Of a stretch of 64,000 nt of DNA, positions 4,710 to 63,984 are shown piece by piece. The notes under the pieces were generated by a model that did not search any database, had not been told where the DNA came from, and worked only from the letters and a program-made list of their open reading frames with translations. The DNA is from Escherichia phage vB_Eco_ZCEC15. Where the stretch lies: sequence record PQ871103.1; one strand, written 5' to 3'. Position 1 is the stretch's first letter; every line of letters begins with the position of its first letter. A program made the position numbers and the translations under genes.

Positions 4710-6514
4710 TGAAACAAAATATTAATATCGGTAATGTTGTTGATGATGGTACCGGTGACTACCTGCGTAAAGGTGGTATAAAAATAAATGAAAACTTTGA
4801 TGAACTTTATTATGAACTTGGCGATGGAGATGTTCCATATTCAGCCGGTGCCTGGAAAACTTATAATGCTTCATCCGGTCAAACATTAAAAGCTAAGTGG
4901 GGAAAATCATACGCTATTAATACCTCTTCTGGAAGAGTAACTTTACAACTTCCTAAAGGAACTGTTAATGATTATAATAAAGTAATTAGAGCTAGGGATG
5001 TATTTGCAACATGGAACATTAATCCAGTTACTTTAGTAGCTGCTTCTGGGGATACAATTAAAGGGTCGTCATCGTCAGTTGAAATTAATATTCAATTTAG
5101 TGATTTAGAGCTCGTTTATTGCGCTCCAGGACGTTGGGAGTATGTCAAAAACAAACAAATTGATAAAATTATTAGTTCAGATATTAGTAATGTAGCTCGC
5201 AAAGAATTTTTAGTAGAAGTTCAAGGACAAACTGACTTTTTAGATGTTTTCCATGGAACTAGTTATAATGTCAATAACATCAGAGTAAAACACCGCGGTA
5301 ACGAATTATATTACGGCGATGTATTTAGTGAAAACAGTGACTTTGGCTCTCCGGGGGAAAATGAAGGAGAATTAATTCCTCTTGATGGATTTAATATTAG
5401 GTTAAGACAGCCTTGTAATATTGGCGACACTGTTCAAATTGAAACGTTTATGGATGGTGTATCACAATGGAGAAGTTCATATACAAGACGCCAAATAAAA
5501 GTACTAGATTCAAAACTAACATCAAAGACTTCTTTAGAAGGAAGCATTTATGTTACTGATTTATCGGCGATGAAATCAATTCCATTCTCTGCGTTTGGAT
5601 TAATTCCTGGCGAACCCATTAATCCTAATTCTCTCGAGGTTCGTTTTAATGGAATTTTACAGCAACAGGCTGGAACAGCTGGGTATCCTCTGTTTTTGTG
5701 CGAAGGCGCTAATTCAGATACGCAAGAAGGATGTATATCTCTTGGTGGCGAATGGAAAGAATCAAACACAGATTATTCTATAGAATATGAAGATGGAAAA
5801 CCTACAAGTCTTTTATTTGATAGAAAATTTGAATCAGGCGATATAATCGTTATAACGTGGTTCAATAATGATTTAGGAACTCTTTTAGAAAAAGATGACA
5901 TCATTGAATTAACGGATGACCGTTATGTTAGTAAAGGATCATCTACCGAAGTTACTGGTGATGTAGCCTTAACGGATTTTGATAAAATCGGTTGGCCAAA
6001 TGTTGAAAAAGTTGATTCTTATACTAGAACGTATAATTCAATATCATCTATTTTCGATAGCATTTATCCTGTAGGTTCAATTTATGAAAATGCTATAAAC
6101 CCAAATAATCCGGTGACTTATATGGGGTTTGGTTCGTGGAAATTATTTGGTAAAGGACAAGTTTTAGTAGGATGGAATGATGATGTTACAGATCCAAACT
6201 TTGCATTAAACAATAATGATTTAGATTCTAGCGGAAATCCTTCACATACTGCCGGTGGAACAGTTGGAACAACGTCAGTAACGCTTGAAAATGCAAATCT
6301 TCCTGCGACTAAAACTGACGAAAGAGTTTTAATTGAAGATGAAAATGGATCAGTTATTATTGGAGGTTGTCAATATGACCCAGATGAAACTGGTCCTATA
6401 TATACAAAATATCGTGAAGACTATGCAACAACAAACTCTTCACATACTCCTCCTACTAATATTAGTAATATTCAACCGTCTATTACTGTATACCGTTGGA
6501 TAAGGATTGCATAA
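4709..6514 (+). CDS. 10: baseplate wedge protein gp10
   Basis: 601 aa (T4 gp10 about 602 aa); start overlaps gene 9 stop; synteny. Confidence 0.93.
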
Positions 6515-7173
6515 TGAGTTTACTTAATAATAAAGCGGGAGTTATTTCCCGCTTAGCAGATTTTCTTGGTTTTAGAACTAAGAAAAATGATATTTCGGTT
6601 ATGAATAATCAGCCAGTAGGTGCTGTAACAATTTCACAAATAGCAAAAGGGTTTTATGACCCAAATGTAGAATCTGCTATTAATGATGTTAGAAATATGG
6701 CAGAGCAACAGGTTGGAGCTGTATTAGTTAATATAAGTGGCGTATCTCCTACTGGCGTGCAGCAAACAGACTATTGGTCATTTGAAGGAACTGTCAATGA
6801 TACTTCAGCCAAACCAGGTGACCCGGTTATTGTTAACATGTTTGGCATTCCTGTTAAAGCTACTAATGGAATGACTTCAATCGAATTTACCAGTGCCGTT
6901 AGAACAGCTCTACAGGAAATGGTTGCAAAATTTATTGCAATTGATTCATTTGAAGACCATCCTACCATAGGAAATAAAATACAAGTTAAGTATTTAGATA
7001 ACCAAGAACATATCTTAGAACAATACTCTGATAAAGGAATTACTTTCAAACAAGAAATAATTTCTCCTTCTAAACCTGGGTATGGAACTTGGCAATTATT
7101 AGGTGCGCAAACTGTTACGCTAGATAGTCACACACAACCTACAGTATTTTATTATTTTGAGAGAATAGCATGA
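6514..7173 (+). CDS. 11: baseplate wedge protein gp11 (short tail fiber attachment)
   Basis: Track ORF begins at an upstream non-ATG codon; ATG at 6514 gives 219 aa starting [20 protein letters not shown], as in T4 gp11; overlaps gene 10 stop. Confidence 0.92.
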
Positions 7174-28611: not shown

Positions 28612-29229
28612 ATGTACCACTTTGTATATGAAACAACAAATCTAATAAATGGTAAAAAGTATATAGGAAAACACTCTACTGATGACTTGAATGATGGTTA
28701 CCTTGGTTCCGGTAAGGCAATTCAGCAGGCTATAAAGAAATATGGTGAAAACAATTTCTCTAGAACAATACTAAAAGAGTTTAAAACTTCCGAAGAAGCG
28801 TACATGTATGAAGAAGAAATTATAACTCCTGAACTAATAAAAAGCAAAAATTATTATAATATGAAACCTGGTGGAATTGGTGGAATTGTTATGACTACAG
28901 AGGTTATAGCAAAGATGAAAGAATCTTCCGCTAAAAGATTTGAAAACTCACCAGGCACGGTATTAGGTAAAACTTGTTACACTAATGGAACTAAAAATAT
29001 TTTTATTAAACCTGGAGAACTTGTTCCAGAAGGATTTGTAAAAGGGATGGTTCATCCTAATAGAAAGTCCAGAAAAGGATGTAAAGTCAAACCGACTACC
29101 ACAGGAACTTTTTGGGTCAATAATGGCGCAATAAATAAATTAATACAACCAGACGGTATTATTCCCGACGGATTTATTAAAGGTCGTCTCATGAAAAGAG
29201 ATTCTAAAGGCAAATTTAGTAAGGCATAA
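28612..29229 (+). CDS. segE: GIY-YIG homing endonuclease SegE
   Basis: 205 aa; N-terminus YHFVYETTNLINGKKYIGKHS is a GIY-YIG-type motif; located between inh and uvsW as T4 segE; own TATAAATA upstream. Confidence 0.88.
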   Translation: MYHFVYETTNLINGKKYIGKHSTDDLNDGYLGSGKAIQQAIKKYGENNFSRTILKEFKTSEEAYMYEEEIITPELIKSKNYYNMKPGGIGGIVMTTEVIAKMKESSAKRFENSPGTVLGKTCYTNGTKNIFIKPGELVPEGFVKGMVHPNRKSRKGCKVKPTTTGTFWVNNGAINKLIQPDGIIPDGFIKGRLMKRDSKGKFSKA

Positions 29230-56832: not shown

Positions 56833-58011
56833 TTAAAAATATTTTTTAAAACTCATCATAACTTTATCATCAACATCATTATCAATCTGTGCTACAAGAT
56901 AAGATGACAGTTCTACTTCTTGTGGCGCTGATTGAACATTATCAGAATTAAGATATTCACGAATCCAAGGATATGGATGTTTAACCGGAGCATCGGTAAT
57001 TGGGCATGGAAGACCACACTGTTTCATACGAGATACAGTTAAGTAATCAATAAAGCTCCACATGCTATTTGTATTTAATCCAGGAACATCGCCGTCTTTA
57101 AATAAATGAACTGCCCAGTCTTTTTCTTGGCGGTTAACTTCCATGAAAATATCAACTGCTTCTTGTTCACACTCTTGAGCAATTTTAACCCATTCATCAC
57201 CATCAGTGCCAAGTTGAAGTTGACGAATAATATATTGGGTGCCTTTAAGGTGAAGTTGCTCATCACGTGCAATGAACTTCATAATCTTGGCATTACCTTC
57301 CATGATTTCCATGTTCTTATGGAAGTTAAAGGTACATGCGAAAGATACGTAAAAACGAATAGCTTCTAAGGCATTAATAACGTGCAAACAGAGGTAAAGA
57401 GATTTCATTAAAGCACGTTTAGCTTCGGCTTCTTGTTTAATAGCTCGGTTTAAACGAAAGACAGCATCAGGAGATTCTTTAGCTAGTTCTACAAATTCTT
57501 TAGCATTTTCCCATTCACGGGTTTTAATCAGAACATCATCATAATAACGCCCAATGGATTCAGCACGTTTCATAATAGCTTCATCTAATACAATCTCATC
57601 AAATACCTTCGATGGATCAGTATAAAGATTTCGCATGATATGAGTATATGAACGACTGTGAATAGTTTCACTAAAAGTCCATGTAGCAACCCATGTATCA
57701 AGACTTGGGTCTGAAATTAATGACATAAGTACAGCAGACGGTGCACGACCCTGAATGCTATCCAAAAGTGATTGATACTTCAAGTTGTTAGTAAAAATAT
57801 TCTGCTGATACTGAGGAAGTTTATTAAATTGTGCAGCATCCATCATTAAGTTTACTTCTTCGGGACGCCAGAAAAATGATAATTGCTTTTCGGTTAAATC
57901 TTCAAAAACTTTATGACGTTGAATATCATAACGCGCAATACCAAGACCTGAACCAAAAAACATAGGTTCTTTTAAAACATCAACTGGATTTGTATTAAAA
58001 ACTGTGCTCAT
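56833..58011 (-). CDS. nrdB: ribonucleotide reductase small subunit (intron-less)
   Basis: 392 aa continuous ORF with di-iron/tyrosyl radical protein character; no intron interruption visible. Confidence 0.93.
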   Translation of the reverse strand: MSTVFNTNPVDVLKEPMFFGSGLGIARYDIQRHKVFEDLTEKQLSFFWRPEEVNLMMDAAQFNKLPQYQQNIFTNNLKYQSLLDSIQGRAPSAVLMSLISDPSLDTWVATWTFSETIHSRSYTHIMRNLYTDPSKVFDEIVLDEAIMKRAESIGRYYDDVLIKTREWENAKEFVELAKESPDAVFRLNRAIKQEAEAKRALMKSLYLCLHVINALEAIRFYVSFACTFNFHKNMEIMEGNAKIMKFIARDEQLHLKGTQYIIRQLQLGTDGDEWVKIAQECEQEAVDIFMEVNRQEKDWAVHLFKDGDVPGLNTNSMWSFIDYLTVSRMKQCGLPCPITDAPVKHPYPWIREYLNSDNVQSAPQEVELSSYLVAQIDNDVDDKVMMSFKKYF

Positions 58012-58062
58012 AAATTTTCCACTTAGTTAATAGTTGGTGACTCGTCCGTGAGTCAAATTATA

Positions 58063-60884: not shown

Positions 60885-61196
60885 TTATACCGCCATCTTT
60901 CCTTTAATTGGCGGGTGAGATACATAGTTGTTAAGAACGAAATCTTTAGGTCTAAGTTTAAGAACATATTTTAATTGTTCTTTAGTAGAAAGATATCGGA
61001 ATTTATAAGGTAGACCACTTATTACCAACTCACAAAGCTCTTTAGGTTCACGCCTCAAAATTTCTTTACATTGTTCTACGTGATTCATATAGATATGAGT
61101 ATTACCACCAGAAAATATCAAATCTCCTGGAATAAGATTACACATCTTAGCTACAATATGAACTAACGTAGCATATGATGCAATATTAAATGGAAG
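60885..61196 (-). CDS. td: thymidylate synthase, exon 2 (103 codons + stop)
   Basis: Encodes LPFNIASYATLVHIVAKMC... C-terminal part of Td; upstream boundary follows intron 3' end ...CTGAACATAATG. Confidence 0.93.
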   Translation of the reverse strand, partial: LPFNIASYATLVHIVAKMCNLIPGDLIFSGGNTHIYMNHVEQCKEILRREPKELCELVISGLPYKFRYLSTKEQLKYVLKLRPKDFVLNNYVSHPPIKGKMAV

Positions 61197-62212
61197 CATT
61201 ATGTTCAGATAAGGTCGTTAATCTTACCCCGGAATTATATCCAGCTGCATGTCACCATGCAGATCAGACTATATCTCCAACTTGTTAAAGCAAGTTGTCT
61301 ATCGTTTCGAGTCACTTGACCCTACTCCCCAAAGGGATAGTCGTTAGGCATTTATGTAGAACCAATTCCATTTATCAGATTTTACACGATAAGTAACTAA
61401 TCCAGACGAAATTTTAAAATGTCTAGCTGCATCTGCTGCACAATCAAAAATAACCCCATCACATGAAATCTTTTTAATATTACTAGGCTTTTTACCTTTC
61501 ATCTTTTCTGATATTTTAGATTTAGTTATGTCTGAATGCTTATGATTAAAGAATGAATTATTTTCACCTGAACGATTTCTGCATTTACTACAAGTATAAG
61601 CAGAAGTTTGTATGCGAACACCGCACTTACAAAACTTATGGGTTTCTGGATTCCAACGCCCGTTTTTACTTCCGGGTTTACTGTAAAGAGCTTTCCGACC
61701 ATCAGGTCCAAGTTTAAGCATCTTAGCTTTAACAGTTTCAGAACGTTTCTTAATAATTTCTTCTTTTAATGGATGCGTAGAACATGTATCACCAAACGTT
61801 GCATCAGCAATATTGTATCCATTAATTTTAGAATTAAGCTCTTTAATCCAAAAATTTTCTCGTTCAATAATCAAATCTTTCTCATATGGAATTTCTTCCA
61901 AAATAGAACATTCAAACACATTACCATGTTTGTTAAAAGACCTCTGAAGCTTTATAGAAGAATGGCATCCTTTTTCTAAATCTTTAAAATGCCTCTTCCA
62001 TCTCTTTTCAAAATCTTTAGCACTTCCTACATATACTTTATTGTTTAAAGTATTTTTAATCTGATAAATTCCGCTTTTCATAAATACCTCTTTAAATATA
62101 GAAGTATTTATTAAAGGGCAGTCCTACAATTTAGCACGGGATTGTCTACTAGAGAGGTTCCCCGTTTAGATAGATTACAAGTATAAGTCACCTTATACTC
62201 AGGCCTCAATTA
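61197..62212 (-). ncRNA. group I self-splicing intron of td (1016 nt), carrying I-TevI ORF
   Basis: Minus-strand 5' end TAATTGAGGCCTGAGTATAAGGTGAC directly after exon-1 ...CTTGGGT; 3' end ...GGGTAAGATTAACGACCTTATCTGAACATAATG; exon 1 frame terminates at TAA formed at the intron start; length 1016 nt as in T4 td intron. Confidence 0.92.
61344..62081 (-). CDS. I-TevI: intron-encoded GIY-YIG homing endonuclease I-TevI
   Basis: 245 aa; N-terminal GIY-YIG motif (GIYQIKNTLNNKVYVGSAKDFEKRWKRH); zinc finger CKCG...CSKCRN; C-terminal DNA-binding region; within td intron. Confidence 0.95.
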   Translation of the reverse strand: MKSGIYQIKNTLNNKVYVGSAKDFEKRWKRHFKDLEKGCHSSIKLQRSFNKHGNVFECSILEEIPYEKDLIIERENFWIKELNSKINGYNIADATFGDTCSTHPLKEEIIKKRSETVKAKMLKLGPDGRKALYSKPGSKNGRWNPETHKFCKCGVRIQTSAYTCSKCRNRSGENNSFFNHKHSDITKSKISEKMKGKKPSNIKKISCDGVIFDCAADAARHFKISSGLVTYRVKSDKWNWFYINA

Positions 62213-62761
62213 ACCCAAGAAAACATCTACTGATCGTTGATACCACTGCAAATCCAAATAGCCATTACGCACATTAAACTGATAGAACATATGACAAGGC
62301 GGTAATGCCATATATTTAAGTTCAGCTGGATTCCATGCAGAAACAATTTGACGCCTATCATTTGGCAGTTTTTTAATACGATCAATAACTTCTATAATTT
62401 GGTCTACACCGCCAAAATCGCGCCATTGTTTTCCATAAATTGGACCAAGTTCACCGCTATGGTATCCTAAATCTTTTGCTTGATTTTCGTAATTTTCATC
62501 CCAGACTGTTTTGCCTTGAATTAATGAATCATGTTGAATTAATCGCAAATCATTGACATTTGTGCTTCCCGATAAAAACCATATTAGCTCAGCAATGCAA
62601 GCTTTCCAGGCGAGCTTCTTAGTTGTTACGGCAGGAAAACCTTTAGTTAAATCCCAGCGTAATTTAGTACCGAACAAAGCAATTGTTCCTGTGCCTGTTC
62701 GGTCATCGGTTTCATAGCCATTTTCAAAAATGTCTTTAATTAAATCTTGGTATTGTTTCAT
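62213..62761 (-). CDS. td: thymidylate synthase, exon 1 (183 codons)
   Basis: MKQYQDLIKDIFENGYETDDRTGTGT... with active-site region ALPPCHMFYQF; joins exon 2 to give 286 aa. Confidence 0.93.

Positions 62762-62805: not shown

Positions 62806-63984
<1,179 letters not shown>

Follow-up and report, generated by a model that had tools for sequence, protein, structure and literature searches.

A T4 td-type group I intron with the I-TevI homing endonuclease gene in Escherichia phage vB_Eco_ZCEC15

The interrupted td gene

The window analyzed here, a stretch of 64,000 nucleotides from Escherichia phage vB_Eco_ZCEC15 (PQ871103.1), carries on its minus strand a thymidylate synthase gene (td) that is split by an insert containing its own open reading frame (Table 1). 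The gene is flanked by frd upstream and by nrdA.2, nrdA.1, nrdA and nrdB downstream, which is the gene order of T4. An earlier note on this DNA had described td as divided into 183 and 103 codons by 1016 nt of inserted sequence, and all of its coordinates match ours, the strand being the one detail that it had omitted. Read directly on the minus strand, the 5' junction passes from ...TTCTTGGGT in the exon to TAATTGAGGCCTGAG... in the insert (62213/62212), and the 3' junction from ...CTGAACATAATG in the insert to CTTCCATTTAAT... in the second exon (61197/61196); these two positions fix the length of the insert at 1016 nt and the exons at 183 and 103 codons, respectively. The insertion point thus fixed lies between codons 183 and 184 of td.

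The open reading frame of exon 1 (62210-62761, minus strand) extends through 183 codons to a TAA stop at 62210-62212, which constitutes nucleotides 1-3 of the intron and lies in frame, just as had been claimed from the sequence earlier. The intron, accordingly, begins with the U of an in-frame UAA, and it terminates with a G (omega-G). Removal of the intron in silico restores an uninterrupted td, as is characteristic of group I introns: the spliced junction would join ...TTCTTGGGT to CTTCCATTT..., and the resulting product is 286 amino acids long. The match of the Pfam thymidylate synthase profile (PF00303) is contiguous across this junction at profile positions 175/176, with neither gap nor overlap, and the spliced product is identical to the crystallized T4 thymidylate synthase (1TIS) at 285/286 positions in an alignment spanning residues 1-286, the sole substitution being S32T. 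Together the contiguous profile and the near-identity to 1TIS confirm the identification of the gene as td.

Table 1. Coordinates of the td exons, the intron and the elements recognized in and around it
Feature	Position in window	Strand	Description
td exon 1 (thymidylate synthase)	62213-62761	minus	183 codons; ORF list, Pfam PF00303 profile positions 1-175
CAACG (CNNNG), predicted I-TevI cleavage motif	62235-62239	minus	exon 1, -27 to -23 from the insertion site
Group I intron (T4 td-type)	61197-62212	minus	1016 nt; ends read directly
5' core half	62121-62219	minus	P1, P2, P3 5' strand, P4, P5, P6 and P6a 5' strands
Operator-like sequence	62107-62126	minus	intron nt 87-106; resembles the I-TevI homing site
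Hairpin over I-TevI Shine-Dalgarno and AUG	62081-62110	minus	intron nt 103-113 paired with 122-132
I-TevI homing endonuclease ORF	61344-62081	minus	245 aa; intron nt 132-869; looped out of P6a
3' core half	61197-61362	minus	P6a and P6 3' strands, P7, P7.1, P7.2, P3 3' strand, P8, P7 3' strand, P9, P9.1, P9.2, terminal G
td exon 2	60885-61196	minus	103 codons and stop; Pfam PF00303 profile positions 176-266

The ribozyme core

Examination of the intron reveals a complete group I core, the pairings of which the earlier note had named as a test of its reading and which are present from P1 to P9.2. In an explicit check of the helices, 14/14 (P1, P2, P3, P4, P5, P6, P6a, P7, P7.1, P7.2, P8, P9, P9.1 and P9.2) consist entirely of Watson-Crick or G.U pairs. 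P1 is formed by the exon sequence CUUGGGU (-7 to -1) with the intron sequence GCCUGAG (nt 9-15), so that the 5' splice site is marked by the wobble pair U(-1).G9, and it competes with P2 for A14 and G15. The 3' strand of P6a (intron nt 851-858) coincides with the last codons of the endonuclease reading frame, and the final nucleotide of the intron is G1016. The features that define group I introns are present, namely a P3-P8 core with the P3/P7 pseudoknot and the sequence of J8/7 and P7 (GAUAUAGUC). Plain MFE folding of ORF-deleted constructs recovers P2, P3, P4, P5, P6/P6a, P7.1, P7.2, P8, P9 and P9.1; it misses P1, in place of which it forms an alternative long-range pairing, and P7, which belongs to a pseudoknot, and both of these helices were then checked explicitly.

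Scans of the whole 64-kb window against Rfam returned no match, either at the gathering threshold or in permissive mode (E<=0.001). When a 2-kb slice was scanned, the Intron_gpI model (RF00028) matched the 3' half of the intron with 42.5 bits (E=5e-9), which lies below the gathering score of 50 bits for this model. In this alignment P7, the 3' strand of P3, P8, J8/7 (GAUAUAGUC) and P9 are placed correctly, and the 5' half is misaligned into the reading frame. A match at the curated threshold is lacking because the 738-nt reading frame in the loop of P6a splits the two halves of the core. We circumvented this split by scanning natural td introns from which the reading frame is deleted. The ORF-less td intron of Escherichia phage 235Ecol030PP, which differs from the core in the window at 2 nt, matches the full RF00028 model with 73.8 bits (threshold 50), and that of Salmonella phage SEA1, which is 87% identical, scores 69.6 bits. 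Both of these introns, with scores above the threshold, occupy the same insertion site and have a homologous core but lack I-TevI, whereas the copy in the window retains the complete endonuclease gene; SEA1, which is a Gelderlandvirus, has a short hairpin with a GAAA cap in place of P6a. A comparison of the window with SEA1 further reveals pair-preserving changes in P8 (A-U to U-A and U-A to C-G) and in P9.2 (A-U to G-C and G.U to U-A), which were read by eye from an alignment of three sequences, a small sample in which MAFFT mis-gaps P8 of SEA1.

The T4 td intron shares this architecture, including a reading frame in the P6a loop, and belongs to subgroup IA2. Given that the intron of ZCEC15 is 99.7% identical to that of T4, it is likely to be capable of guanosine-dependent self-splicing.

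The endonuclease, its control elements and its target

The reading frame within the intron had been described in the earlier note as a full-length GIY-YIG protein of 245 amino acids, and both its domain content and its sequence bear this out. Pfam profiles detect a GIY-YIG domain (PF01541), the I-TevI zinc finger (I-TevI_ZnF, PF22635) and the I-TevI DNA-binding domain (I-TevI_DNA-bd, PF20987), along with NUMOD3 (PF07460), whose match is weak and falls below its cut-off. The product is identical to T4 I-TevI (NP_049849) at 245/245 positions. It is also identical to the structure of the DNA-binding domain (PDB 1i3j, residues 130-245), and to that of the catalytic domain (PDB 1mk0, residues 1-97) except at position 75, which is Glu here and Ala there. 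Thus, at the protein level there is no difference from I-TevI, the GIY-YIG homing endonuclease known from the structures 1mk0, 1ln0, 1i3j and 1t2t, and this identity suggests that the ZCEC15 protein is an active nuclease.

Upstream of and overlapping the start of this reading frame is a stem in which intron nucleotides 103-113 (UAAAUACUUCU) pair with nucleotides 122-132 (AGAGGUAUUUA) in 11/11 base pairs, so that both the GAGG of the Shine-Dalgarno sequence and the A of the I-TevI AUG are hidden. Local folding of this hairpin gives an MFE of -16.6 kcal/mol (z = -3.26). Its 5' arm contains AATAAATA, which resembles a T4 late promoter. A scan for sigma-70 promoters, with 8 sites observed against 11.6 expected, is uninformative in this respect; the late promoters of T4 are of a different kind. 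A further element, at intron nucleotides 87-106, shows 14/20 ungapped identity to the reconstituted exon junction of the phage itself. The T4 intron has the same ribosome-binding-site hairpin and operator region, and in T4 the hairpin blocks translation of I-TevI from early and middle transcripts, a late promoter inside the hairpin bypasses the block, and the operator serves I-TevI as an autorepressor site (PMC2988022). By analogy, nucleotides 87-106 are probably the counterpart of the T4 I-TevI operator, and a comparable use of the late promoter and repression by I-TevI may be expected in ZCEC15 (PMC2988022).

The target of the endonuclease is likewise recognizable in the exons. The known cuts of I-TevI fall 23 and 25 nt ahead of the insertion site, with a preference for C-N-N-N-G (PMC2988022), and the CAACG motif in exon 1 stands at the canonical distance for such cuts. 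With respect to T4, synonymous exon changes occur at -22, +3, +6 and +18, in or next to the region of the I-TevI homing site. Among these exon differences (window positions 61179-61194 and 62234), the nearest lies 3 nt downstream of the intron, and the one at -22 adjoins the cleavage motif. The A-to-U change at +3 could conceivably provide the short P10 with a third pair, namely U.G with intron G6.

Read in the light of the work on T4, what is observed here (the identity of the sequence, the continuity of the exons, the pairings of the core, the domains of the protein and the regulatory motifs) would correspond to splicing, cleavage, homing and regulation in ZCEC15 in the following manner. The transcript would fold into the P1-P9.2 ribozyme, an external guanosine would attack at the U.G pair of P1, where the 5' splice site lies, and the freed exon 1 would then attack after the terminal G, joining the exons such that a full-length thymidylate synthase of 286 amino acids could be made; on unspliced RNA translation would end at the UAA that makes up intron nucleotides 1-3. 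I-TevI comprises an N-terminal GIY-YIG nuclease, a linker that contains a zinc finger and, at the C-terminus, a helix-turn-helix domain that binds DNA. During co-infection with a relative that has no intron it would bind the uninterrupted exon junction and make its cuts at CAACG, 23 and 25 nt upstream, whereupon repair would copy the intron together with some of the flanking exon (homing). On long early and middle transcripts the 11-bp hairpin would hide the ribosome-binding site of I-TevI, whereas late transcripts starting inside the hairpin would be translatable, and I-TevI probably represses its own late promoter via the operator-like sequence.

Relationship to T4 and spread among related phages

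A database search recovered 36 phage records (including some GenBank/RefSeq duplicates) in which the 1016-nt intron is 100% identical over its full length, and 193 records in which it is at least 99% identical, from phages of Escherichia, Shigella, Salmonella and Yersinia. With this many identical and nearly identical records, the resemblance is not a matter of chance. The td intron of T4 (NC_000866.4, in which td is annotated as a two-piece join) is 99.7% identical (1013/1016 positions) and likewise inserted after codon 183, with the junctions ...UUGGGU/UAAUUG... and ...AUAAUG/CU..., in agreement with the initial reading of the intron ends as those of T4 td. There are three differences: ZCEC15 has one T fewer at intron nucleotides 92/93, just upstream of the operator region; A263G is a synonymous change inside the I-TevI reading frame; and C949A lies in the joining region J7/9. 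The td intron of RB3 differs only in the synonymous position (99.9% identity), and hence shares the missing T and A949 with ZCEC15, while all three variants are necessarily present in the 36 identical introns. Near-identical introns thus occur in Tequatrovirus records comprising RB3 and about 36 others, such as SHFML-11, ECO4, PYPS2T and fPS-90. The extra T of the T4 record (locus extract 5236-7113) is seen as GGACTTGCCC versus GGACTGCCC, the corresponding site in the window being 62121/62120. On account of this base the T4 td intron is 1017 nt long by its own annotation, and its length is 1016 nt in the window, in RB3 and in the 36 identical records. The published length of the T4 td intron is also 1016 nt, and the extra T may reflect either a difference between strains or an error in the reference.

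Taken together, the insert is almost certainly a mobile, self-splicing group I intron of the T4 td type residing in the td gene of a T4-like (Tequatrovirus) phage. The td intron and I-TevI of ZCEC15 are real and form a complete, textbook element that was already known. An alternative is that this copy is a decaying remnant, non-mobile or poorly splicing, with a ribozyme crippled by C949A or an endonuclease gene that has lost its expression. Decay of the td intron does occur naturally, with ORF-deleted versions seen in 235Ecol030PP, vB_EcoM-G28 and SEA1, and three positions in the window depart from the T4 reference. However, the reading frame is of full length and 100% identical to the active T4 I-TevI, every helix of the core is intact, and the three variants amount to a synonymous codon, a joining-region base and a loop base, two of them being common to RB3 and all three to the 36 identical introns. 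Moreover, the locus contains no second copy of td, and a non-splicing intron would therefore cost the phage its thymidylate synthase. We accordingly regard a remnant as very unlikely. The natural derivatives in which the I-TevI reading frame is wholly or mostly deleted retain about 250-445 nt, and such reduced td introns are found in PP355091.1 (locus extract 701-1019), OQ927978.1 (701-950) and MG867727.1. They are snapshots of the decay phase in the life cycle of homing endonucleases.

Comparison of the intron with its flanks bears on the manner of its spread. Against T4 there are 16/549 nucleotide differences in exon 1, 3/1016 in the intron and 10/312 in exon 2, and against RB3 the corresponding counts are 22/549, 1/1016 and 36/312. 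The flanking exons have thus diverged by 3-11% and the intron by 0.1-0.3%, a divergence 10 to 100 times lower than that of its surroundings. A near-identical intron in diverged exons is the pattern classically left by an element that has recently spread horizontally by homing, as this intron is likely to have done. The recent spread of such introns has been known in principle since the early studies on intron distribution, and the present case adds a clean further example of it and nothing conceptually new. Across the surrounding 6 kb the best records are 95-97% identical, with the top match reaching only 96.7%; the phage is a Tequatrovirus to which no record in the collection is identical. 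An artefact of assembly or annotation, such as laboratory T4 DNA fused to that of another phage, might be read into an intron that is identical to many entries between flanks at best 96.7% identical to any record, but the same pattern recurs in dozens of phages that were sequenced independently and have Escherichia, Shigella, Salmonella and Yersinia hosts, and is what homing predicts, the junctions are exact to the base with the exons joining in frame, and the copy departs from the T4 reference at 3 positions, which renders such an origin exceedingly improbable. That the window is T4 itself was also rejected, given that its exons are about 3% different and that an extra reading frame lies between frd and td.

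The full-length intron is present in 196 records. The ligated exon junction is matched by 579 records, in 403 of which it is contiguous or split by a short insert only, and in T2 the junction is intron-less. The earlier statement that the presence of the intron varies among T4-like phages is therefore sound, and its designation of this phage as intron-plus at td is a fair description of a full intron at a site that is variably occupied across the phage collection. It appears improbable that natural Tequatrovirus populations are now undergoing a sweep by the exact variant seen here, without the extra T at nucleotides 92/93 and with A949 in J7/9. As pure speculation, these two differences from laboratory T4 might slightly alter the autorepression of I-TevI or the selection of the 3' splice site.

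The principal value of these observations lies in annotation, with td to be presented as a joined two-exon gene and I-TevI to be named, and in the intron typing of the phage. Many of the records that match the intron carry two separate CDSs labeled "thymidylate synthase" and in addition a "hypothetical protein" or "homing endonuclease", with no intron feature or joined CDS, a widespread weakness of annotation and not a matter of biology.

Further along the same region, nrdB is an uninterrupted reading frame of 392 amino acids (56833-58011, minus strand), separated from nrdA by a gap of about 50 nt (58012-58062). Being uninterrupted, it is without the group I intron of T4 nrdB (I-TevIII), and the intron status of the phage is thus plus at td and minus at nrdB. 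The phage also lacks mobE and nrdB.1, both of which T4 has between nrdA and nrdB. On the other side of td, a reading frame of 119 amino acids (62806-63165, minus strand) is situated between frd and td, with an overlap of 23 nt with the end of frd. In T4 there is no gene between frd and td, which overlap directly, whereas RB3 and many relatives have one; the RB3-type records share the entire gene neighborhood, including this extra frame. The 119-aa frame has no match in Pfam and matches phrog_1928 (unknown function). The frd reading frame is 205 amino acids long here, as against 193 amino acids (582 nt) for the T4 frd CDS. Elsewhere in the window, a free-standing reading frame, also of 205 amino acids (28612-29229, plus strand), occurs immediately upstream of one of 502 amino acids that, by its position and sequence, is presumably uvsW-like. 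The product of this free-standing frame displays weak similarity to I-TevI (phmmer E=2.7e-4), with a visible N-terminus of the GIY...YIG type (FVYETTN...KKYIGKH), and is apparently the counterpart of the T4 homing endonuclease segE, in the place where that gene is usually found.
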